A stretch of 44,476 nt of DNA. Source: Escherichia phage vB_EcoD_Pubbukkers. The position numbers and the translations under genes are program-made. Below the pieces are notes generated by a model. That model made no database searches. It was given only the letters and a program-made list of their open reading frames with translations, and was not told the origin of the DNA. How positions within the stretch are numbered: the first letter of the stretch is position 1; each line of letters starts with the position of its first letter. Shown here in pieces: positions 5,067-40,475 of this stretch. Where the stretch lies: the sequence record NC_073068.1; one strand, written 5' to 3'.

Positions 5067-5080
5067 TGGCCCCTTTTGTT
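5056..5080. terminator. rho-independent terminator between convergent genes
   Basis: GGGGCC-gtgat-GGCCCC stem followed by TTTTGTT; lies between the plus spanin ORF end (5066) and the minus gene end (5079). Confidence 0.6.
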
Positions 5081-5843
5081 AGCGTGGAATACCGCAGATT
5101 TCGTTTAACGTCTTCACATCCAGCGCCACCGCCGTGGACTTAGGCTTGTCCGGGTATGGAATGAACTGTTCCACTTCAGGCCACGCCTTGATCAGCTTCT
5201 TATCGGTATTGTGCATGTTCAGAACGCCGGTAACGGTTAGCTTGAACGCGTCATACTTAGCTCGCAACTCGCGTCGGGCCTTGTCGTTACGGTCCAGGCG
5301 CTTGCAGAAATCATGATCCGCCGGAAAATCAGCGCGGCAGCGTGGCTTATAGATCGGCAGCGCTTTCCCGTCCTCGTCCAATTCGCACACAGAAGCCAGC
5401 ATAACTTCTTCGTACCCAGGCACAATATCGCCGAGATCGGGAGATAGCATATTCATGTATTTATATTCCCAGTATCCGCGATGTATTCGGTATTGTCGTC
5501 CGTCACCGCTCAATGACAGTGTGCGCACATTTCCGCCTGCGTTGATTTCGAAAGTGGCGTCATAAACGCTGCCGATACCGTTCGGGCTGTCGGCGTCATA
5601 TCTATACGTCGCCTTGTTGGTGTATACGCAGACGCCGTACATCTGCGACGGGTCATCGCCGATTGCTTCAATGCGCTCACGTAGCTCGGCGAACGAATGA
5701 ATGCCTTCCGGCATACAGTCAAGCGTAATGGCGTACGCCAGATTTCGAGAGTCCATCATGATTGATTTGGCTTCGGTCGCGATTTCGTGGTCGCGCAGGA
5801 TGTTAGCCAGAATCTGGTTTTTAATGTCTTTCGTCAGTCTCAT
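5079..5843 (-). CDS. hypothetical protein (reverse-strand moron in head module)
   Basis: 255 aa starting MRLTKDIKNQ with RBS GAGGA; the ORF-track N-terminal extension (to 6224) is low-complexity antisense of the scaffold gene and is rejected. No recognisable motif. Confidence 0.6.
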   Translation of the reverse strand: MRLTKDIKNQILANILRDHEIATEAKSIMMDSRNLAYAITLDCMPEGIHSFAELRERIEAIGDDPSQMYGVCVYTNKATYRYDADSPNGIGSVYDATFEINAGGNVRTLSLSGDGRQYRIHRGYWEYKYMNMLSPDLGDIVPGYEEVMLASVCELDEDGKALPIYKPRCRADFPADHDFCKRLDRNDKARRELRAKYDAFKLTVTGVLNMHNTDKKLIKAWPEVEQFIPYPDKPKSTAVALDVKTLNEICGIPR

Positions 5844-5991
5844 TAGTGTGTCCTCGTTGTTGGTGTGCAACCAATATATGCAACCAATACGAGGATCGCA
5901 AGCGAATTTTGCGATTATTTTTATCGCTGATAATATTAGAAGCGTGAAGTCGAGCGGGTGGCCTGCTCTGCCACAATCCCAGGGGGATAGC

Positions 5992-24777: not shown

Positions 24778-24839
24778 TATGTGGTCCTTTTTAGTTGGGG
24801 GCGGTATTGCCCCGACGCGTTAACTATAGTGCAACCAAC

Positions 24840-25310
24840 CTATTGGTTGCAAGTGAATTTCGCAACGTTTATTGCGTAAATATTCGGGACCAAATCGCTA
24901 CACGCCCGACGGATAGCTGCAATGTTCTTCGGGCAGTCTTCAATGATGACCAGTTCCGACACGTCTGCGTAGCAGACCATTTTGAACACGGTGCACGCCT
25001 TAAACTCCGGCGGCGGGGTGTCGTCCAGCATGTGGCGCATAAACAACCGGCCTGCCGGGAATACTTCCAGTTGCTCGGCGGTAGTCTCCCAACATTCGCG
25101 CTGCCGGTTAGTCAGATACGCTATCTCGAAGCCTTGCTCTTTGTACATGCGCAACAGCGGCAGCATATCCATGTTCAGGTCTTCGCGAACGTGCGCTTTG
25201 TGCCACTTCGCCCAAAAGGTGGATTTCGTTTTTATGCCTGGCACCAGGTCGGCGCGGGCATCACTCGAACCATTAATGACGCCATCCAGATCACAAATCA
25301 GTAATTTCAT
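24840..25310 (-). CDS. HAD-superfamily phosphatase (putative)
   Basis: 156 aa from ATG 25310 (MKLLICDLDGVINGS): the DxDGV motif I of haloacid dehalogenase-like hydrolases sits at the N-terminus; the ORF-track extension to 25376 is rejected. Confidence 0.6.
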   Translation of the reverse strand: MKLLICDLDGVINGSSDARADLVPGIKTKSTFWAKWHKAHVREDLNMDMLPLLRMYKEQGFEIAYLTNRQRECWETTAEQLEVFPAGRLFMRHMLDDTPPPEFKACTVFKMVCYADVSELVIIEDCPKNIAAIRRACSDLVPNIYAINVAKFTCNQ

Positions 25311-26448: not shown

Positions 26449-26691
26449 TTATTTAATCTCCGTAGTGCGGATTTCCTTGCGAGGAATAAATTTGCCGTCT
26501 TTCTCGACCCAGCAAGTTCCGTAACGCCATTGGGTATTACGGCCTGTTTGCTCGGCATATACGGTCTTGCATTCGTAGCGTTCCGAGTAGTAAATAGCCG
26601 CGGTAGGTACGAAAATACAAACGGCAAACATGAGGGTGAGTATCACCCAAAATCGAAGGTCGCCGTCGTAGTCGAAAAATAATGATCTCAT
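26449..26691 (-). CDS. small membrane protein
   Basis: 80 aa with one hydrophobic helix (FWVILTLMFAVCIFVPTAAIYY); ATG at 26691 downstream of a promoter-like motif pair. Confidence 0.45.
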   Translation of the reverse strand: MRSLFFDYDGDLRFWVILTLMFAVCIFVPTAAIYYSERYECKTVYAEQTGRNTQWRYGTCWVEKDGKFIPRKEIRTTEIK

Positions 26692-26705
26692 TGTGTCGTC
26701 TCCGG

Positions 26706-26736
26706 GTATTAAAAAGGGCGTCCAAACCGGACACCC
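26706..26736 (-). terminator. rho-independent terminator on minus strand
   Basis: On the minus strand GGGUGUCC-gguuu-GGACGCCC followed by UUUUUAAU; immediately downstream of the motif pair at 26746-26772. Confidence 0.5.
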
Positions 26737-26772
26737 TCAATATAATGCAACCAATACGGTTACGCAACCAAT

Positions 26773-29704: not shown

Positions 29705-29983
29705 CTATGCGACCAATTCAGCAACCAATAAATCGCAGTCGGATATGTTGTCGATAACGCGAACGTCAGCACCGCGGCGGGCCATTCGCTCATGTTCACG
29801 TACCTGGTGCGGCTTCGGTTTTCCTCCGGGGCGCTTCACTTCGACGAACACTATTTTGCCGTTGATGATAATAATCAGGTCGGGCGCACCTGCGCGCCCC
29901 TCCCATGCCAGTTTTCGGCAGAATCCGCCTACCTCTTTCACCCGTCGCATCAGGTGACTTTGAATCTTGCCTTCTGGTGTCAT
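29705..29983 (-). CDS. VRR-NUC domain nuclease
   Basis: 92 aa; PD-(D/E)xK-type core DLIIIINGKIVFVEVKRPGGKPKPHQ typical of VRR-NUC; start overlaps the polymerase stop. Confidence 0.7.
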   Translation of the reverse strand: MTPEGKIQSHLMRRVKEVGGFCRKLAWEGRAGAPDLIIIINGKIVFVEVKRPGGKPKPHQVREHERMARRGADVRVIDNISDCDLLVAELVA

Positions 29984-32900
29984 TACTTCCTGTACCTGTA
30001 CATGATGTCGCCTTCAGCGGCAAGCGGGAAGCCTTTCGCCCAAATAGGCAGGTCGCACATCAGCGCGCAAAGCTCCTCGGTCGTGTAGTCGTCGGTGTCC
30101 GGAACTTCGGTGATCAATTCATCGTGCACTGACAGGACGATTTCATATCCGGCAGCTTCAACGCCAGGCATGGACCACGCGAGGATATCGCGGCACAGCG
30201 CCTGTACGATGTTTTCCGTCAGTTTGCCGCCGTAGGTGTACTGGAACCCCCACTGGCGCGTCGTCTGATTCTCGCCCTGATATTTAATGCGGGTGCTGGT
30301 GCGCTTCTTGCCGGTGTCTTCGTCAATCTCGGTCGTGACCGACAGCGCGATGCCGGGGTAACTCATGATGCGCCCCGACGGCAACTCAATTTTCAACCAC
30401 CACCCCGCGGCGTTCGGGTCGTCGCGCTCCTCGTCAAAGGTTGGGTCGTGCTTCGCCTTCGTACGGACAATCTTGAGCGCTTTTCTACCGTCCGGGCGAA
30501 CGGTAGCGCCAGCCCAGTATGCTTTGCCCGGATTGCGTATTGCACACAACACCGCGTCCTCAAGCTCGGCCCAAAAGGCTACCGTCTTCGGGTGCGCCTC
30601 TCGCCACATGCGTTTAATCGCATCACACGTAAGCCATACGTTTTTCGGCAGTATGTAAGTCGGGCGCTCGTCCTTCTTGCCCGGCTTCGGCGGTCGCTTC
30701 GCTTCGTTAATGCGGGCGTACTCATAACCCCGTTTAGCCGCTGCCCAAATGTGATTGGGGAATGTGCCCTTCATGACGTCCGCCATCGCGTAAAGGTCGA
30801 GGCCCAGGTTTTTAGCGAACTGCAAGAACGCCGCGACGCCGCCACCATAGCCCAGGCCAAGCTCGCAGTTATGCGCCACCAGAAAACCAGACTTAGACGC
30901 AATAAGGAACCGGTTTCCGTCTTCCACATCAATCAGGTCGTAAACCGGCTCGCAATAGGTTAACTTCCCGTTCCAGTTCAGCAATGCGGGTAAGGGCTTC
31001 ATCGTACTTTCGCTGAAGCTCGGGCACGCTGCGCCGGTTACGGCAGTTTTCCGAACGGCTGACAAACCGAAGGTTTCCAGGCTCATAGTTGCTGTCTGTA
31101 TCGATCCGGTCCATTTCGAAGTCTGGATTATCCCAGCCGTCCAGCGTTTGAACGTAGAGAAGAAACGACCTTTTATCTCTCTGCCATTCGTCACATACGG
31201 CAATCCCACGACCGCCGTAGTTTTTATACCCTTTGGCGCGGGGGTTTGTCGTTCGTGATATTGCCGCTGACAGCCGGTTGAGCAACCGCGTTCTGTGCGC
31301 ATCGTCTGGCATTGCGTCATCGTAGCAAAAATACTGTTTACGATACCGCTTTGTCGCTTCAATTGCGCAGAGGTTGCATTGGGATGTTTTACCCCTTCGG
31401 ACGTTGTCATACCCGACGCGTCCTGGCATCGCTCCGCAATCACATTGGGCCAGCAGTTGTCTGTGCCCCTGTCGTTTTGGTAATTCGCGCAGGATAACCA
31501 GGCGTCCATACCTCTCGCCAGGGCGCGGGCCATCGTGCACCTGTCTGAAACGAGTTGCCTTGCCTCCTTCCATGAATGCGTCAAGATTTTGTGGTCTTCT
31601 GTCATCAAGACCCCGTCCACGTCTATCACTGGTTTCCACCCCATAAGGTGCGCGCCTTTTGTACTCACCCATTTTTCGCCGTTCCATACTTTATCCGTTG
31701 ATGTTACGGCCATAATATCCTTGAACCCGCCATCGGTCAATACTTGGGTATGGCGGTGCAAGCAAGCCTTCCCTATCTGGCGTAAGTCCTTGCGGTTAGC
31801 TTTAATGTAGTCCGGGTCCAGGCCGAACATCTTACCGGCAGTCTCACAATAGATATCACGACCGGCCTTAAACACCATTAGCGCGGTTTTCTCGCCAGCG
31901 ATCCAGGCAAGTCCACGCCCTTCCACGTTGGAGTAGTCCGCTACGACAAACTTCTTGCCCTTAGCCGGGATAATGCACCCGCGAACGGTCGAGGCTGTTA
32001 GCTTCGATATGTCGTACGCCCAGTGTGCGGTCCCGCGTAGCAGGGAATTGATGCCGTTGGTGAGCATGTGCGACCGGACCCAAAAAGCAACGTCGCTCTC
32101 GCCTTCGCGGCGCTTAATCTTCCCTTCGTGATCGTCGCTATACTCGCCGCGTGCCAGGTTTTGAGGCTGGAAGCCTTTACCGGCCCAGCGTAGCGTGCGC
32201 TTTGCCCCTCCATACTGAAGACAACCTCGGCGGCGACCGTCGGCGGATAGGCCATTAACGAGCGGATTGTACTTAGTCGACGCCGTGGATGACGCACCGA
32301 GGCGCATCTCGATAAGCACTTTGCCCTCGTCGGGGAAGTCTGGATCTTCCAGCAGGTCGTTAAGCGTGGATTTCTGCGCATTGTGGATTGTGAACGCAGG
32401 CGCGAGGTCGCGCAGCGCTGGCAGGAAGTCATTGCCGGTCAGCTTACCGCCGAAGCGCTCCCAGGCTTCTTCCTTCAATTCTTCCTTATGCGCCTGCACC
32501 GCTTTGATCGCGGCGTTCGCCAGGTCAACGTCCACATAGAAGCCGCGGTCATTGATCAACTGGTCGATAAGCAGGATTTCATCTTCCTTCGGGGTATTAC
32601 CCCAGTCCGGTATGCGCCAGTAGACCTCCCGCATCGCGATAATATCCAGCGCGGCATATCGCAGAAATTTGGCCCATTCTTCAGGGTGAGTCTCGCGAGT
32701 GTAGCGGCGGATTTTGTAAGTCTTAGGGGTAGGCTTGCAGAATCGTTTAATCAGCGCCTTGCCTGCCTTATCCTTCGCGTGCTCTGCGTCAACGCCCAGC
32801 ACCTGACACTGCATATCGAGGCTGCCCGGCAGCGCGTGCCGAAAGGCCATAATCATGGTATCTTCGATCTGGCTTACCGGCAGGTCGATTCCCCACTTTT

Positions 32901-33171
32901 CACGGATAACCAGGCGGTCAAACAGGAGGCCGTTAGCCATCACGATTTTTGCTTTCTTGCGGGATACCTGACGGAGCGCCTTGCGCAGTTCACGCGGCAT
33001 TGTTGGTGATTCAGTGGCATCCCATGTCTGCACGCGGCCTTCGTCGATGGCGTAGGTGCAAATCATGATCTCGGTGGTTGGGTGCTCTGCGTAGGCGTAC
33101 GCCCCTACTTTCTTCAGGTCCACCCCGCTAAATGTCTCGGTATCGAGAAACAGGCGTTCAAAGTTTTTCAT
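29983..33171 (-). CDS. DNA polymerase I family (3'-5' exonuclease plus polymerase) interrupted by an intein
   Basis: 1062 aa; Exo I FLDTETFS; motif A VADYSNVEGRGLAW; motif B split as RQIGKA | intein | CELGLGYGGG; motif C VLSVHDELITEV. Intein residues 470-768 carry block A (CLHRHTQVLTDGG), block B (ILTHSW), block F (VYDLIDVEDGNRFLIA) and block G (FLVAHN followed by +1 Cys). Confidence 0.85.
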   Translation of the reverse strand: MKNFERLFLDTETFSGVDLKKVGAYAYAEHPTTEIMICTYAIDEGRVQTWDATESPTMPRELRKALRQVSRKKAKIVMANGLLFDRLVIREKWGIDLPVSQIEDTMIMAFRHALPGSLDMQCQVLGVDAEHAKDKAGKALIKRFCKPTPKTYKIRRYTRETHPEEWAKFLRYAALDIIAMREVYWRIPDWGNTPKEDEILLIDQLINDRGFYVDVDLANAAIKAVQAHKEELKEEAWERFGGKLTGNDFLPALRDLAPAFTIHNAQKSTLNDLLEDPDFPDEGKVLIEMRLGASSTASTKYNPLVNGLSADGRRRGCLQYGGAKRTLRWAGKGFQPQNLARGEYSDDHEGKIKRREGESDVAFWVRSHMLTNGINSLLRGTAHWAYDISKLTASTVRGCIIPAKGKKFVVADYSNVEGRGLAWIAGEKTALMVFKAGRDIYCETAGKMFGLDPDYIKANRKDLRQIGKACLHRHTQVLTDGGFKDIMAVTSTDKVWNGEKWVSTKGAHLMGWKPVIDVDGVLMTEDHKILTHSWKEARQLVSDRCTMARALARGMDAWLSCANYQNDRGTDNCWPNVIAERCQDASGMTTSEGVKHPNATSAQLKRQSGIVNSIFATMTQCQTMRTERGCSTGCQRQYHERQTPAPKGIKTTAVVGLPYVTNGREIKGRFFSTFKRWTAGIIQTSKWTGSIQTATMSLETFGLSAVRKTAVTGAACPSFSESTMKPLPALLNWNGKLTYCEPVYDLIDVEDGNRFLIASKSGFLVAHNCELGLGYGGGVAAFLQFAKNLGLDLYAMADVMKGTFPNHIWAAAKRGYEYARINEAKRPPKPGKKDERPTYILPKNVWLTCDAIKRMWREAHPKTVAFWAELEDAVLCAIRNPGKAYWAGATVRPDGRKALKIVRTKAKHDPTFDEERDDPNAAGWWLKIELPSGRIMSYPGIALSVTTEIDEDTGKKRTSTRIKYQGENQTTRQWGFQYTYGGKLTENIVQALCRDILAWSMPGVEAAGYEIVLSVHDELITEVPDTDDYTTEELCALMCDLPIWAKGFPLAAEGDIMYRYRK
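30868..31764 (-). mobile_element. intein inserted in DNA polymerase motif B
   Basis: 299 codons between extein residues ...RQIGKA and CELGLGYG...; starts with Cys, ends with His-Asn followed by Cys; canonical Hint blocks at both ends; the central ~180 codons show no endonuclease motifs in the polymerase frame. Confidence 0.8.
30929..31687 (-). CDS. HNH homing endonuclease encoded in the -1 frame inside the polymerase intein
   Basis: 252-aa ORF offset by one nucleotide from the polymerase frame; contains GRLVILREL...CDCG...SQCNLC, KGYKNYGGRGIAVCDEW and DRIDTDSNYEPGNLRFVSRSENCRNR (HNH core). Likely true start at Met39 (31573); no strong RBS seen. Confidence 0.6.
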   Translation of the reverse strand: MERRKMGEYKRRAPYGVETSDRRGRGLDDRRPQNLDAFMEGGKATRFRQVHDGPRPGERYGRLVILRELPKRQGHRQLLAQCDCGAMPGRVGYDNVRRGKTSQCNLCAIEATKRYRKQYFCYDDAMPDDAHRTRLLNRLSAAISRTTNPRAKGYKNYGGRGIAVCDEWQRDKRSFLLYVQTLDGWDNPDFEMDRIDTDSNYEPGNLRFVSRSENCRNRRSVPELQRKYDEALTRIAELEREVNLLRAGLRPD

Positions 33172-35929: not shown

Positions 35930-36117
35930 TATTCCACCCTTGAAAACTGAGCAATGTAATATTCATGTTTAACCCCAGCCCGCTTCGCGGCTTCGTTCAT
36001 GGTAGCCGCCAGTCCTCTGGCGTGAGTCCAGCAGCAATTCCAGTTCTGATTCATAACGATTTCCGGTTGCTCATCGCCGGTAATACGGCAACGAAATAAA
36101 ACAAAGAATATAGCCAT
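35929..36117 (-). CDS. hypothetical protein
   Basis: 62-aa ORF tightly packed between flanking genes. Confidence 0.4.
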   Translation of the reverse strand: MAIFFVLFRCRITGDEQPEIVMNQNWNCCWTHARGLAATMNEAAKRAGVKHEYYIAQFSRVE

Positions 36118-36369
36118 TTATTTTGTCTCCCAGCGGTCAATTGTTTTTGCTTCGGACGCAACGGCGAAGCGAACATATTCCAGATTGGAGTCCGCCCAAA
36201 TATAAAAGTCGGGGTTAGTAAAGGTGGTGCGCTTAATTTGCGCGGGGGTATTGCGGCGTTTGTCTATTACGGCAACGCGGGACTTAAAATTGCCGATGCG
36301 TTCGAATAGCCAATAATACGGGCGCTGGTCGCGGGAGTCCACCGCCTCGATTAGCGTGAAGCGTGCCAT
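36118..36369 (-). CDS. hypothetical protein
   Basis: 83 aa; ATG at 36369 lies immediately after the terminator that follows the acidic-protein gene. Confidence 0.45.
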   Translation of the reverse strand: MARFTLIEAVDSRDQRPYYWLFERIGNFKSRVAVIDKRRNTPAQIKRTTFTNPDFYIWADSNLEYVRFAVASEAKTIDRWETK

Positions 36370-36380
36370 TGTCTCGTCCT

Positions 36381-36410
36381 CTAAAAAGAGGCCCGCTAAT
36401 CTGCGGGCCG
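36381..36410 (-). terminator. rho-independent terminator on minus strand
   Basis: GGCCCGC-agatta-GCGGGCC followed by UCUUUUUAG on the minus strand; separates the first early gene from the rest of the leftward operon with no room for a new promoter. Confidence 0.65.
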
Positions 36411-36417
36411 GAATATA

Positions 36418-36933
36418 TTAATCTTCCAGTTCGAAATAGGTTTCGACGATTTCTTTTAGCTCTTCGTGGAAGTCTTCGACGTCGTCATCTTCCAGCTTGG
36501 CGATTGATTTGATCTCGAACGATTCCAGCAGGTTGTCGAATTCGTCGTTCGCATCGTCGTCATCGCCACCGGCGATAATCGCGGCATACTGTTTGATTTC
36601 GTCGCGCATCTCTGCCAGCGGGTCGGCATCTTTCTTACCTTTGCCTTTCGCCGGTGCTTTCTTAGACTTAGCCGGTTTTTCGTCTTCGGCATCGTCGTCG
36701 TCATCTTCTACGACTTCTTTTTTAGCCTTACCTTTCGCCGGGGATTTTTTAGATTTAGCCGGTTTTTCGTCTTCGGCGTCATCGTCGTCATCTTCGACAA
36801 CTTCTTTTTTGGCCTTAGACGGCTTCTTATCTTCCTGTTTACCAACGGCAGCGCCAACGGTTTCATAATGCTTTGCAATGGTTTCCAGTGCTACTACGCC
36901 GCGAGTGATCAGGTTTACGATTTGCTCAAACAT
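36418..36933 (-). CDS. acidic/basic repeat protein (first gene of the leftward early operon)
   Basis: 171 aa from ATG 36933 (MFEQIVNLITRG) with RBS GGAG; two tandem ~28-aa repeats (KKEVVEDDDDDAEDEKPAKSKKxPAKGKxKK) and an acidic C-terminus; has its own promoter and terminator. Confidence 0.6.
   Translation of the reverse strand: MFEQIVNLITRGVVALETIAKHYETVGAAVGKQEDKKPSKAKKEVVEDDDDDAEDEKPAKSKKSPAKGKAKKEVVEDDDDDAEDEKPAKSKKAPAKGKGKKDADPLAEMRDEIKQYAAIIAGGDDDDANDEFDNLLESFEIKSIAKLEDDDVEDFHEELKEIVETYFELED
36635..36814. repeat. tandem ~90-bp repeat (2 units) inside the acidic-protein gene
   Basis: Units 36635-36727 and 36728-36814 are imperfect copies (ttacctttcgccgg...agccggtttttcgtcttcggc...atcgtcgtcatcttc...cttcttttttRgcc). 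Confidence 0.7.
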
Positions 36934-37129
36934 GGTATATCTCCGATTGGTTAAGTTTAGGTGTCGGCAGTTAACTTCGTCGGTGGCCTTAACATATTGC
37001 CAGGTTACGCGTTCTCCCGTTCGGGTAGTGGACCTGGTTATATAATCACGGTTGGGAATCCTGACACTTCGATCCGGCCCCTGCGTTACCCCTCTCCAGT
37101 TTGCGTCCTGCATCCTGTCGACGGGGTGA

Positions 37130-37159
37130 ATAATAGATTGGTTGCAGGATGGGTGTCAA
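37130..37159 (-). promoter_or_regulatory. sigma70-like promoter for the acidic-protein gene
   Basis: On the minus strand: -35 TTGACA (37159-37154), 18-bp spacer containing TGCAACCAAT, -10 TATTAT (37135-37130); a 7-bp inverted repeat CATCCTG/CAGGATG (37111-37117 and 37146-37152) brackets the -10. Confidence 0.5.
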
Positions 37160-37170
37160 CAACTAATTTC

Positions 37171-37206
37171 AAAAAAAAAAGCGCCGAGGCAAAATGCGAC
37201 GGCGCT
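37171..37206 (-). terminator. strong rho-independent terminator on minus strand (A10 on plus = U10 on transcript)
   Basis: On the minus strand AGCGCCG-13 nt loop-CGGCGCU followed by ten U; stem at plus 37180-37206. Confidence 0.65.
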
Positions 37207-37234
37207 AACCAATAAGAGACAATGAGACGGGAGT

Positions 37235-37263
37235 ATTATTACACGCGTGCGCGCCCGTTTCAA
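37235..37263 (-). promoter_or_regulatory. sigma70-like promoter on minus strand upstream of the U10 terminator
   Basis: -35 TTGAAA (37263-37258), 17-bp spacer, -10 AATAAT (37240-37235) on the minus strand; would give a ~55-60 nt transcript ending at 37171. Confidence 0.4.
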
Positions 37264-37335
37264 TATCCAAAGGATTTGACACCTTGCGGTTTTAGGTGTA
37301 GTTTCGTTGATCATTAACCAACTGAGGGCAGAGCA

Positions 37336-37665
37336 ATGAATGTAAACGACGCAATCGAAATGTTAACGAAGACTGTTTGCAGTGAGACTAGCCGGTCCTG
37401 GGCTTATACCGATGCCGTTGGGGAGGTGTTATTTGAAATCGAACGACTGCGCAGTGTCGAAAAAGAATTACGCGCCAGGCTGGAATTGCTCAACGGTACG
37501 GCGGCCAGCAAGCTGCAAAAGCACAATGAAGAAATGGAAGAATACAAAAAGCAGGTTATCCGTTTGCGCGCCGAGGGCAAATCCTGGGCGATGATTGCCG
37601 AGTTGACCGGAATTAATCAGAGCACAGTGCGCTCCTGGGTACGCAATAATAAAACTTCTAAGTAA
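37336..37665 (+). CDS. HTH DNA-binding protein (putative transcriptional regulator)
   Basis: 109 aa; C-terminal helix-turn-helix-like GKSWAMIAELTGINQSTVRSWVR; first gene of the rightward arm; perfect -35 TTGACA at 37276-37281 upstream. Confidence 0.55.
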   Translation: MNVNDAIEMLTKTVCSETSRSWAYTDAVGEVLFEIERLRSVEKELRARLELLNGTAASKLQKHNEEMEEYKKQVIRLRAEGKSWAMIAELTGINQSTVRSWVRNNKTSK

Positions 37666-37675
37666 GGCCACGGCA

Positions 37676-39940
37676 ATGAGCTTAATTAAATTCGCTGTAA
37701 CACGACCCGCTAAAAAAGGCGAAAAAGCCAGGGCGGAAAACTTCCAGATGACTACCGAAGAGTTTTTCGAATTTATCAATGATGCGAAAGAAATCTCCTC
37801 GGTGCATATCAACAAGACGGAAGATAAAGCCGAGTATGCGCGCCGCAAGCGTAAGGCCGATGGCATCGTAGCGTATACCAGTGACGGCTTACGCCGCAAG
37901 ACCAGTGCGGTGGACCGCTCGATCCTGTTCTTCGATATTGACCGTACCGACACCCGCACCCTACGCCGCTGCCGTAAGGCGTTCATCGACGCGGGACTGG
38001 AGCACGTCTTCCACACCACAACCGGCGACCGCCATCCGCTGAAAGGCGGCACGCGTTGCGCTCGATTCCTGGTACTCACGGACAAGCCTGTACCGGCTGA
38101 AGACCTGGGCCGTGTCCAGTATGCGCTATTACACCAACTGGGTCTGTCAGATGTGGACTTCGACGATTGCACGAAAGACACAAACCGCCTTATGTACCTG
38201 CCACACCAGCAATCGGTTGTTAAGTGTCACTACGGCAAACGCGCCCGCGTCCGTCGTCTTCTTCGCCTGGCTGATAAGCTGGGAATGGAAAAAGAGGAAG
38301 TCCGCCGCGAACTGACCCAGGGCGACGACGCAGTGGCAGACGGCATTCTGGACTGGTGCTTCCAGGCAGGATTCGAGGAGTTATCTTCCGGGCGGGGCTA
38401 TGAAGTGCCGTGCCCTAACGAACACCTACACAGCGGCGAAGGGTCCACCGCTATTATGGTCAAGGATGGCGAGATCCGTTTCAAGTGTATGCACACCGGC
38501 AACGAGTGTTGCTCGGAACTGAATAGACACCAGCACCTGGCGCTACGTCTTATCGGGATCCCGGACCACCTGAACGTCGAACCGCACAACATGTCACGTA
38601 AGCAAATCGCCGCCATCCTCCCAGGGCTGGACGACGAGGAAGTCGAATCATTATATGAACATATTGTTGATGCGGTTGGCGACGGCGAAGAATACGGCGT
38701 GTGCACCGATGCGGATCTGGATAACGAGCCGGTTGCGCTGTTCAGTAAGCACGACCCGATCATAGAAGGCCTGGTCAACTTCAAATCGACCTGGTATCTT
38801 GCTGGCGAGTCGAACATCGGTAAATCGTTCTACGTGCTGGGGCAAATGGGTGCGGTTGCCGCGGGGATTCCGTTCGGTGGCGCGAAGGTCGTCCAGTCTC
38901 ATTGCTTCTATTTCGACGCGGAAGGTGGCGAAGCCTCTAACCAGCGCAAAGAAGCATTGCAGATTAAATATGAGCACGACCTGGACAAGCTGCACATTAT
39001 CGATCTGCAATCACGCGGCTGGGATATCACCAGCAAATCCGGCTTGCGTGAAGTTATCAGCTTCATCAACCGCACCGCTAACGGCGAGCCGGTTGGCCTG
39101 GTGGCGTTCGACTCACTCAACCAGACTGTCGCGCTGCGGTCCGCCGATGCCAAACCGTTCGACGAGAACAACGCCAGCGATATGGGTGAAGTGGTCAAAG
39201 CGCTGAAGGCCATCGCGGAAAATACAGGCGGCAGCGCGGGCGTCATCCACCACCCGGCGAAGGGTGCAAACGGCAGCAGAACCCCCCGAGGGTCCGGCGC
39301 GCTGCATGGTGCTGTCGATTCTGCGTTCTTCCTGGAACAGCCGGACGACAACCAGCCCGGACAATTGAACCTGTATCATGAGAAGTCACGTAACGGCATC
39401 AAGCAAGCGCCGCGTGGCTTCGTCCTGCTCAAGTGCAAGGTGAAGGTGGATCTCCGCAAGTCCGAGGCGTTCGAGGCGCACCAGTCCACCAGCACCGGGC
39501 CAGACTTCGGCGATGTGGTTGCCGGTTGGGACGTCAAGCCAATTGCCTCCACGCCACGCGACGAGACTCTTTACCTCGTACCGGTCGCCCTGGCACCGTT
39601 CGCCATCGAGCAGGCGAAGTCCGCGGGCAAGGCCGCAGTTAAGGAAGAGAACGCCGCGGGACCGCGCAACGAAAAAGAGAAAGTGCTTTATGCGGCCCTG
39701 GAAAAACTGATGGAAGATAACCCGGACCATACTGGTTTCAGTAAATCGGCAATTGTCCGCCAGGCGGGACTCGCGAAGGGTGGTACTTCGACGAAGGCAA
39801 TCGACGATATGGTCGAGCGCGGCGTACTCGGTTTTTATACCGATCCGCACACCGGGGCCATCTATGGGTCGTCGAATATCGTCATCAAAACGAACATACC
39901 AATCACGCTTTCGGCGACCGATGATGATTTAAAAGATTAA
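37676..39940 (+). CDS. DNA primase/helicase (AEP prim-pol-like N-domain plus RecA-like ATPase)
   Basis: 754 aa; N-terminal ILFFDIDRTD (acidic D-x-D motif as in archaeo-eukaryotic primases); Cys/His cluster (CPNEHLHSGEG...FKCMHTGNECC); Walker A GESNIGKSF and VAFDSLNQ Walker B-like segment. Confidence 0.75.
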   Translation: MSLIKFAVTRPAKKGEKARAENFQMTTEEFFEFINDAKEISSVHINKTEDKAEYARRKRKADGIVAYTSDGLRRKTSAVDRSILFFDIDRTDTRTLRRCRKAFIDAGLEHVFHTTTGDRHPLKGGTRCARFLVLTDKPVPAEDLGRVQYALLHQLGLSDVDFDDCTKDTNRLMYLPHQQSVVKCHYGKRARVRRLLRLADKLGMEKEEVRRELTQGDDAVADGILDWCFQAGFEELSSGRGYEVPCPNEHLHSGEGSTAIMVKDGEIRFKCMHTGNECCSELNRHQHLALRLIGIPDHLNVEPHNMSRKQIAAILPGLDDEEVESLYEHIVDAVGDGEEYGVCTDADLDNEPVALFSKHDPIIEGLVNFKSTWYLAGESNIGKSFYVLGQMGAVAAGIPFGGAKVVQSHCFYFDAEGGEASNQRKEALQIKYEHDLDKLHIIDLQSRGWDITSKSGLREVISFINRTANGEPVGLVAFDSLNQTVALRSADAKPFDENNASDMGEVVKALKAIAENTGGSAGVIHHPAKGANGSRTPRGSGALHGAVDSAFFLEQPDDNQPGQLNLYHEKSRNGIKQAPRGFVLLKCKVKVDLRKSEAFEAHQSTSTGPDFGDVVAGWDVKPIASTPRDETLYLVPVALAPFAIEQAKSAGKAAVKEENAAGPRNEKEKVLYAALEKLMEDNPDHTGFSKSAIVRQAGLAKGGTSTKAIDDMVERGVLGFYTDPHTGAIYGSSNIVIKTNIPITLSATDDDLKD

Positions 39941-40015
39941 ATTTTGCGCGCATTGGTCGCCGTTATGGGAATCCCCATATCGGTAAAAGATTAAATTTTG
40001 CGCGCATTGGTTGCC
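39930..40015. repeat. pair of 32-bp direct repeats (31/32 identical) overlapping the primase stop
   Basis: taaaagattaaattttgcgcgcattggtYgcc at 39930-39961 and 39984-40015, 54-bp period; each ends in an ATTGGTYGCC motif. Confidence 0.8.
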
Positions 40016-40075
40016 ATTTTGCGTGCTTTTAGCTGGTCGTATTGGTTGCCGTGTAGTGTAAATATAATGAATAGT

Positions 40076-40263: not shown

Positions 40264-40475
40264 AATCCGGGATTGCATAACGCACGGCAACAAGATGCGG
40301 AGTGCGGTCGTCGATGAACTAGGCAACCAACGCGAGATGCATTATGCTGAGTGAAAAATTCAGTTTGCAGTTGCAGCAGATAGCGATCAACTTTTTCATG
40401 CGCGTGATTGATATTGGTTGCATTCGTCCTGCCAGGGTGTTAGATTGGTTGCATATCAAACGAAGGAGGGCATTC

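Follow-up and report, generated by a model that had tools for sequence, protein, structure and literature searches.

We analyzed the genome of Escherichia phage vB_EcoD_Pubbukkers (NC_073068.1; 44,476 nt, the whole of which is called the window below) and found that the segment at positions 37171 to 37263, read on the minus strand, very probably contains a selected small RNA gene that is independently transcribed and terminated. The window is that of a Dhillonvirus, an HK578/SO-1-like coliphage of a strictly lytic genus, and the unit occupies the intergenic DNA separating two divergent early arms. Its product would be an RNA of ~57 nt that acts by base pairing in trans and damps the translation of phage early genes, a reading to which we assign a probability of roughly 0.55. 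Of the possible mechanisms, base pairing with the ribosome-binding regions of phage early mRNAs has the best support in these data; the production of the RNA, its pairing, the direction of the regulation and the use of Hfq are all inferred.

The unit starts with a promoter, P1 (37235..37263, minus strand), which is composed of a −35 hexamer TTGAAA (37263-37258), a GC-rich spacer of 17 bp and an extended −10 element TGt-AATAAT (37243-37235; TG at 37243-37242, hexamer at 37240-37235). The promoter scan scored it 10/12 plus the extended −10. Only four sites in the whole window reached at least 10/12, and both P1 and P2, the promoter of the acidic-protein operon, were among them, 104 bp apart. Promoter-like sites by themselves were not enriched (6 against 4.3 expected in 6 kb); the significance of the unit comes from the conjunction of its elements and from their conservation, not from promoter-like sites alone. 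The predicted small RNA (GUCUCAUUGUCUCUUAUUGGUUAGCGCCGUCGCAUUUUGCCUCGGCGCUUUUUUUU; 37172..37228, minus strand) would be ~57 nt (55–58 nt) in length, its ends being placed from the sequence. G37228, the putative first nucleotide, is located 7 nt past the −10 element after a discriminator of 6 nt, and the 3′ end would fall inside the U-tract. The first 22 nt, the seed (GUCUCAUUGUCUCUUAUUGGUU; 37207..37228, minus strand), were unpaired in both the minimum free energy and the centroid folds; they are C/U-rich, and the corresponding DNA is a direct repeat, GTCTC-ATT-GTCTC. The seed is followed by an intrinsic terminator (37171..37206, minus strand) consisting of a hairpin at 37206-37180 and T10 at 37180-37171. 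The hairpin, AGCGCCG-UC-GCA-UUU-UGC-CU-CGGCGCU, has a GC stem of 7 bp, a 2x2 internal loop and an inner helix of 3 bp, and was predicted at −16.2 kcal/mol alone, while a stretch of 68 nt gave −17 kcal/mol (z = −3.0 against shuffles). It was not listed by the terminator scanner because the loop limit of the scanner is 8 nt. The A10/T10 run is the sole A/T homopolymer of at least 8 nt in the window, and the terminator is expected to be unidirectional since the plus-strand hairpin is trailed by TAACCAAT. A preliminary description of this DNA had proposed a sigma70-like promoter TTGAAA-17-AATAAT at 37263-37235, a strong terminator with a GC stem at 37180-37206 and U10, and a transcript with no start codon. 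Promoter and terminator were recovered exactly there, and the predicted transcript contained neither AUG nor GUG.

Other identities of the unit were considered and rejected. The overlapping open reading frames (ORFs), which could be read as coding, are unstable in frame and length among relatives: that of the same strand (52 aa in the window) varies from 7 to 52 aa, and that of the opposite strand, the only one there (37222-37317, 31 aa), from 19 to 31 aa. A cis-antisense RNA of the OOP/Sar type was also rejected, there being no conserved ORF opposite the unit and P_R, the candidate promoter of the rightward arm, transcribing away from it. The Rfam search over 36000-38500 at a permissive threshold returned sub-threshold noise with no family match; the best overlapping scores were 20.9 bits for STnc480, 19.7 bits for RsaE and 18.1 bits for ncS54, against gathering thresholds of 72, 79 and 43 bits, respectively. 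No paralogue of the RNA was found elsewhere within the window. The unit (106 nt) gave no match in an E. coli genome collection by blastn, which detects only ~20 nt or more and not short seeds, and because of this lack of a match we take the unit not to be derived from the host or a prophage.

Conservation was evaluated first among Dhillonviruses and then in wider lineages. By megablast, 174 phage records matched 36400-38000, mostly at 90–97% identity, and nearly all of them were Dhillonviruses (HK578, SO-1, SSL-2009a, BASEL isolates); 151 phage records covered at least 80% of a 221-nt intergenic query at 84–99% identity. The unit was present in all of the 30 non-duplicate Dhillonvirus-lineage sequences that we aligned from IMG/VR, metagenome and GenBank data. 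Pattern scans of IMG/VR and the metagenomes detected Dhillonviruses only, and the wider lineages were reached via homologues of a helix-turn-helix (HTH) protein encoded next to the unit (60–87% identity, protein database) and then their contigs. The unit was found in four such more distant lineages (L015/L051/L055, L052/L053/L058, L054 and L056; the numbers are our designations). In the alignment of 30 sequences, just one of the 22 columns of the RNA 5′ region (37228-37207) was variable, owing to the loss of one nucleotide in the divergent L012 type, compared with all six columns of the discriminator just upstream of the RNA, 11 of 33 in P1 (mostly singletons), 12 of 30 in the hairpin and 8 of 30 in P2. 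The 5′ part of the RNA is thus the best-conserved stretch of the intergenic region, and the onset of the conservation coincides exactly with the predicted start site. Judging from this alignment, selection acts on the RNA rather than on the promoter.

The same arrangement is retained beyond the Dhillonviruses. Equivalent promoters occupy the position of P1 in five other lineages; those of the four more distant ones have different sequences (TTGCGC-17-TATTAT, TTGTAC-17-TAAGAT, TTGCGC-18-TATAAT, TTGTGC-17-TATTAT), and every lineage has a conserved G 7–8 nt past the −10 element followed by (U)CUCAUUG(U/C). The 5′ end (G)UCUCAUUGUC is kept across lineages and UCUCAUUG is retained in six. In the wider lineages, 20–45 mostly unstructured nt precede a hairpin of unrelated sequence (beginning AUCCCCAG.., CCCGCAAAA.., GCCUGGCC.. 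or AUCCCUG..) and then U8-13; over all lineages the length of the U-tract is 8–14 and never below 8. Since a MAFFT alignment of all lineages left the hairpins out of register, we numbered the stem positions of every folded hairpin from its base in order to score co-variation. There are six distinct hairpin sequences, and at least two standard pair types were observed at five of the seven aligned stem positions. Within the Dhillonviruses, the stem of the L012 type changes from GCGCCG/CGGCGC to UCCCCG/CGGGGA by two compensatory double changes. The segment before the hairpin in L015, L054 and L056 is CUCCUGA, an anti-Shine-Dalgarno sequence. The unit was not found in Smarc3, STP-1 and eiAU, in which the primase is ~45% identical and the divergent gene order is kept; because these further relatives share the gene order without the unit, it is considered to be a clade-specific, self-contained insertion. 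The stand-alone unit for an RNA of ~57 nt suggested in the preliminary description is supported by these comparisons, with its geometry kept in six lineages, a compensatory stem, conservation that begins at the start site and overlapping ORFs that are not conserved.

The reverse complement of the seed, GAGACAAUGAGAC, resembles a ribosome-binding site, with a GAGA Shine-Dalgarno sequence, AUG and an AGA codon. Because duplex energies gave no outlier, as detailed below, we relied on co-variation between the RNA and its candidate sites among lineages. The first candidate target is the ribosome-binding region (UUAACCAAUCGGAGAUA; 36938..36954, minus strand) of the acidic-protein gene (36933..36418, minus strand; 171 aa, phrog_3127, unknown function), which would pair with RNA nt 8-23 so that the Shine-Dalgarno sequence is covered. 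The predicted duplex is −18 to −19 kcal/mol (−19.0), a value reached by 3 of 1000 shuffled seeds, and the Dhillonvirus RNA segment UAUUGGUUAGC is complementary to UUAACCAAU in the acidic-gene leader. In L015, the RNA and the leader both differ and still pair at −19.4 to −20.9 kcal/mol (2/1000), as compared with about −11 kcal/mol for non-cognate combinations. When the RNAs and leaders of six lineages were permuted, the cognate sum was −110.7 against a permutation mean of −89.0 (standard deviation 8.2), and only 3 of the 720 permutations were as low. Effects of composition cancel in this test since each permutation uses every RNA and every leader once.

The second candidate is the start-codon region (UAAUGAGAC; 5837..5846, minus strand) of a gp7-like Nmad5 gene, in which eight nucleotides (AAUGAGAC) are perfectly complementary to RNA nt 1-8. 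The corresponding site of L052, CGACAAUGAGA, is an 11-nt complement of the RNA of that lineage, UCUCAUUGUCG, a match obtained in 0 of 5000 shuffles. In L015, a 1-nt indel is matched on the two sides; the RNA starts with GCUCAUU, which has one U fewer, and the gp7-like site is AAUGAGC, which has one A fewer and gives a perfect complement of 7 nt. The L012 site, CGAUGAGAC, forms 9 bp including one G-U and is accompanied by CAAUGAG over the Shine-Dalgarno sequence. The gp7-like gene (254 aa, 5079-5843, minus strand) lies on the opposite strand within the structural-gene block and encodes a protein with PF18757 (nucleotide-modification-associated domain 5). It has its own promoter, TTGCGA-17-TATATT, with two copies of a 9-mer motif, ATTGGTTGC.

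The third candidate is the start-codon region (GAGACAAUG; 36367..36375, minus strand) of an 83-aa gene (36369..36118), a 9-nt perfect complement of RNA nt 5-13. The sites of this gene track the RNA, GAGACAAUG occurring with UUGUCUC in Dhillonviruses and CGACAAUG with UUGUCG in L052; in L052 and L058, CGACAAUG matches the RNA of the same lineage, CAUUGUCG. A fourth candidate belongs to an accessory 80-aa gene, whose start-codon region (ACAAUGAGA; 26686..26694, minus strand) complements RNA nt 2-10 perfectly over 9 nt. This gene starts at 26690 downstream of a promoter with a pair of motifs, and is absent from phage Over9000. The ribosome-binding region of the HTH gene gave −20.1 kcal/mol in the window (12 of 1000 shuffles). 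Outside the locus there were seven perfect complements of at least 8 nt that contained ATG, and three of them were situated on plausible gene starts.

These data are consistent with the following sequence of events. Host sigma70 RNA polymerase would fire P1 at about G37228 right after entry of the DNA, as the quality of the promoter suggests, and transcription would halt at the hairpin and U-tract, leaving a product with a free 5′ region of 22 nt, a single GC hairpin and a long U tail. Early mRNAs, which come from near and distant motif-bearing promoters, would then be paired in trans by the free 5′ region at their Shine-Dalgarno sequences and start codons, and ribosomes would be blocked. As the RNA builds up, the synthesis of the early proteins would be capped or shut off. 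The best target candidates would be the acidic-protein gene, the gp7-like Nmad5 gene (5843..5079) and the 83-aa gene. The terminator may also shield P2 from transcription that starts at P1, and its T-tract, judging from its position and the A/T content, is probably an UP element of P2.

Several observations weigh against this reading. In the duplex scan of the whole window with the 27-nt 5′ region, no outlier was obtained; the best non-self match (−26.2), located inside a 1062-aa ORF (29983..33171) and within the range of shuffled seeds, was dismissed. The 64 ribosome-binding regions annotated in phage Over9000 showed no outlier either, the four best values (gp7, the HTH gene, gp47 and the acidic gene) grading into one another between −19.4 and −17.9 kcal/mol. 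The C/U-rich seed pairs with any Shine-Dalgarno sequence, and the AUGAGA of the gp7 match is partly fixed by the conserved Met-Arg N-terminus of all homologues. The permutation test was not significant for the 83-aa gene over five lineages (20/120), and the HTH gene showed no cognate preference over six (91/720), which leaves the latter as a weak candidate only. The co-variation rests on four to six lineages of shared ancestry and on short matches. We found no report of a Dhillonvirus transcriptome or of Dhillonvirus small RNAs in the literature that was searched; papers on an HK578 'small RNA' proved to deal with Argonaute guides, and an RNA-seq paper under 'Dhillonvirus' with another phage. 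Finally, the seed DNA is the direct repeat GTCTC-ATT-GTCTC, which is triplicated in L056; it could be a protein-binding site, and inverted copies of such a site at the target genes would mimic complementarity to an RNA.

This last point belongs to an explanation without any trans function, which we regard as unlikely. P1 would then exist as the back-to-back counterpart of the rightward promoter, P2 would be insulated from P1 by the terminator and receive its UP element from it, and the conserved sequence would be a DNA operator, a GTCTC repeat with inverted copies near other early genes as well. P2 (37130..37159, minus strand; TTGACA-18-TATTAT, 11/12) lies 12 bp past the T-tract, and in every lineage the T-tract with the next A/T-rich bases covers roughly positions −38 to −57 relative to P2. 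Moreover, the genome evidently employs short repeated DNA operators, such as the 9-mer motif GCAACCAAT, which has 27 matches against 12 expected and is often paired. However, a pure insulator would call neither for a transcript whose first 22 nt are better conserved than any other part of the region nor for a GC hairpin upheld by compensatory change. An RNA is favored over a DNA operator because all of the candidate sites are RNA-complementary in orientation, because they lie at start codons rather than at promoters, and because two of the differences between the RNA and the sites are G-U-compatible transitions.

About equally improbable is the explanation that the RNA is real and acts mainly on the host, its seed pairing with an E. 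coli mRNA or the RNA titrating a host RNA-binding protein, with the phage matches being secondary or generic. The seed UCUCAUUGUC is unchanged across lineages that have diverged elsewhere in the RNA and in the phage leaders, which fits a slowly evolving host target, and the hairpin and long U tail would suit Hfq binding. There is also a precedent in the lambda small RNA PreS/LPR1, which was found by RIL-seq (RNA interaction by ligation and sequencing) on Hfq and regulates host dnaN (10.1101/2024.10.31.621285). Against an action on the host stand the lack of a match to the unit in the E. coli genomes at the sensitivity of blastn (~20 nt or more) and the lineage-specific co-variation with phage ribosome-binding regions, which it leaves unexplained.

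The preliminary description had offered as an alternative an attenuator leader that controls read-through into the promoter region of the acidic protein. Transcripts from P1 would normally stop at the hairpin, and regulated read-through would add to the expression of the acidic operon. This is very unlikely, even though the unit stands in tandem with the operon on the same strand. The leader also contains CUCUUA, which may recall boxA of the lambda nut sites. The attenuator is unlikely since the overlapping ORFs are unstable in frame, no antiterminator was found in any lineage and a strong promoter of its own serves the downstream gene. As long as the right arm of the hairpin has yet to emerge, the nascent leader is predicted to fold at only −2 to −6 kcal/mol, compared with −12 to −16 kcal/mol for the hairpin of the terminator, and it showed no conserved pairing with the left arm in any lineage. 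There is no leader peptide and no match to a riboswitch or leader family, and the perfect tracts of U8-14 in all lineages predict efficient termination. Smarc3, STP-1 and eiAU, which share the gene order, do without the unit. Given the perfect long U-tract and the adjacent P2, regulated read-through appears to be neither needed nor provided for. The least likely explanation is that the short transcript primes or activates a phage replication origin, as has been proposed for an early RNA that is transcribed within the ori of lactococcal phage c2 and is non-coding: the unit does sit between the recombination/single-stranded DNA-binding protein (SSB) arm and the primase-helicase gene at the minimum of the cumulative GC skew (~36-37 kb, within the divergent early region), but this minimum is ambiguous as an origin signal because it coincides with the gene-orientation switch and so is not independent evidence, no iterons or AT-rich unwinding element other than the T-tract were found near the unit, the repeat cluster at 39952-40049 and 40413-40452 is more iteron-like, and priming would leave the co-variation with ribosome-binding regions unexplained.

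As a trans base-pairing small RNA, the unit would form a new family of a known kind, outside all described families. It resembles the Hfq-dependent RNAs with a 5′-terminal seed (RybB, OmrA/B, MicA) in being an independent sigma70 unit of ~50-90 nt with an unstructured, conserved 5′ end, a 3′ terminator hairpin with a long U tail, and complementarity to the Shine-Dalgarno or start regions of several mRNAs. It differs from them in that it is encoded by a virulent phage, has one hairpin only, lacks similarity to Rfam families and has phage genes as candidate targets, and its binding to Hfq is only inferred. As a short promoter-to-terminator phage transcript in an early regulatory region, it is also comparable with lambda OOP and P22 Sar (~70 nt), which pair with phage early mRNA. 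Sar covers the ribosome-binding site of ant, and OOP and Sar are both cis-antisense RNAs that overlap the target gene on the opposite strand. In contrast, nothing is encoded opposite the present unit, and since the candidate targets are 220 nt to 31 kb away, the pairing would be in trans and imperfect. With PreS/LPR1 and the prophage RNA DicF, which acts on host ftsZ, it shares the origin from a phage, the terminated end and the base-pairing regulation, which is a prediction in the present case. These two RNAs come from temperate phages and act on the host genes dnaN and ftsZ, whereas the present unit belongs to a strictly lytic genus and the complementarity that is supported is to phage genes. 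The type I antitoxin RNAs of the IstR-1/tisB and OrzO/zorO systems are similar in that the small RNA gene adjoins the candidate target without overlap; in these systems, pairing over ~15-20 nt with the 5′ region of the target blocks translation. Unlike them, the unit is in tandem with its neighbor rather than divergent, has apparent further targets, and adjoins the gene of an acidic protein that shows no sign of toxicity.

A broader but doubtful proposal is that this one tiny RNA serves as a master 'anti-ribosome-binding-site' over several early operons that share promoters with the GCAACCAAT operator. It would be made from the first minutes of infection and would pair with the lead genes of these operons, which encode the acidic protein, the Nmad5-like gp7, the 83-aa protein and perhaps the HTH regulator. 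If true, early expression would be shut down or balanced at two levels, by a DNA-binding regulator and by an RNA, and the RNA would be a counterpart of the T4 translational repressor RegA and a rare example of a small RNA from a lytic phage that has the phage's own genes as its regulon. To our knowledge, strictly lytic phages have yielded only a few small RNAs, and targets are known for almost none of these. Dhillonviruses are common and easily grown phages of E. coli K-12, and several are included in the BASEL collection and in test panels for defense systems. If confirmed, an RNA of 57 nt with a defined seed and three or four candidate targets with natural compensatory variants would be a testable model, in which the post-transcriptional timing and balancing of early proteins by a lytic phage could be studied directly.

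The leftward arm (minus strand) encodes the acidic protein, small ORFs, a PD-(D/E)XK nuclease and an SSB-like protein, and the rightward arm encodes a 109-aa HTH_23/sigma70-region-4-like protein (37336-37665) and then a 754-aa primase-helicase. P_R, the divergent candidate promoter of the rightward arm (37276..37304, plus strand; TTGACA-17-TAGTTT), was read from the sequence; its weak −10 hexamer (3/6) places it under the threshold of the promoter scanner. P_R and P1 are back to back with their −35 hexamers 12 bp apart, in agreement with the divergence from a rightward TTGACA promoter candidate that was noted in the preliminary description. In HK578-type phages (L032, which is HK578, and L042), an unrelated 142-aa 'transposase' gene takes the place of the 109-aa HTH gene and of the P_R −10 region, and the P1-RNA-terminator-P2 block is unbroken from the −35 hexamer of P_R onwards. 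Because the block is intact despite this replacement, the RNA unit is inherited together with the leftward arm.

Existing records of relatives carry no RNA annotation at the unit. The HK578 RefSeq record has three annotated promoters, which are the counterparts of P_R, P1 and P2, and is the only one in which the promoters of the locus are marked; the record of phage CS16 marks a terminator at the locus. A 48-aa protein is called over the unit in the KarlBarth record, in which the same-strand ORF (52 aa in the window) is thus annotated. Annotation errors of two sorts thus occur, some records calling a protein of 48-52 aa over the RNA gene and some stretching the acidic protein over its non-coding leader.

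This 5′ leader of the acidic gene includes a segment of 148 nt (36966-37113, minus strand) in place of 12 nt in other Dhillonviruses (L001, L008, L010 and L038), and the segment is also present in the distant L054 lineage. It is annotated as an N-terminal protein extension in Over9000 gp49 and KarlBarth gp49. The segment is non-coding, given that its frame is disrupted by indels in L004, L009 and L011. It is highly structured by prediction, with one pair seen as A-U, U-A and C-G, and gave no match in Rfam. The acidic protein itself (36418-36933, minus strand) has two copies of a tandem repeat, KKEVVEDDDDDAEDEKPAKSKK followed by PAKGK, which the record of phage bob annotates as a repeat_region. 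A Pfam search with the protein gave no match. Its gene is the first leftward gene also in eiAU and Smarc3, and the protein may be of a DNA-mimic or anti-defense type.

The 9-mer motif GCAACCAAT/ATTGGTTGC, counted above at up to one mismatch, occurs mostly as closely spaced intergenic pairs, with sites at 5867-5888, 21982, 24831-24850, 26747-26772, 29709-29729, 37137-37145, 39952-40049 and 40413-40452. It lies in the spacers of sigma70-like promoters, namely P2 (where GCAACCAAT is at 37137-37145), TTGCGA-17-TATATT of the gp7-like gene and TTGCGT-17-TATATT of the 80-aa gene (26690). In L015, L052 and L054, the P2 spacer is filled by two tandem copies. The motif is probably the operator of a phage regulator, for which the 109-aa HTH protein is a candidate. 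The preliminary description had also noted a resemblance of UAUUGGUUAGC in the RNA to the ATTGGTTGC motif; this resemblance is not conserved, being absent in L015 and L054 and altered in L012 and L052.

Right after the stop codon of the primase-helicase gene, at 39952-40049, a 30-nt unit GC(A/G)ACCAATGCGCGCAAAATTTAATCTTTTA is present twice, 54 nt apart, with a third copy of the motif nearby. These repeats are iteron-like and may belong to an origin or to a region with a regulatory role. Short GC hairpins were seen a few bases past the promoter at 26700-26735 (minus strand) and at the equivalent positions upstream of gp7 in L060 and L062-L066. Such hairpins appear to stand at the starts of several early-type mRNAs, for example GGGUGUCCGGUUUGGACGCCC followed by UUUUU, or GGGGCGAAAGCCCC, and could be stabilizing 5′ stem-loops or further short terminated leaders.

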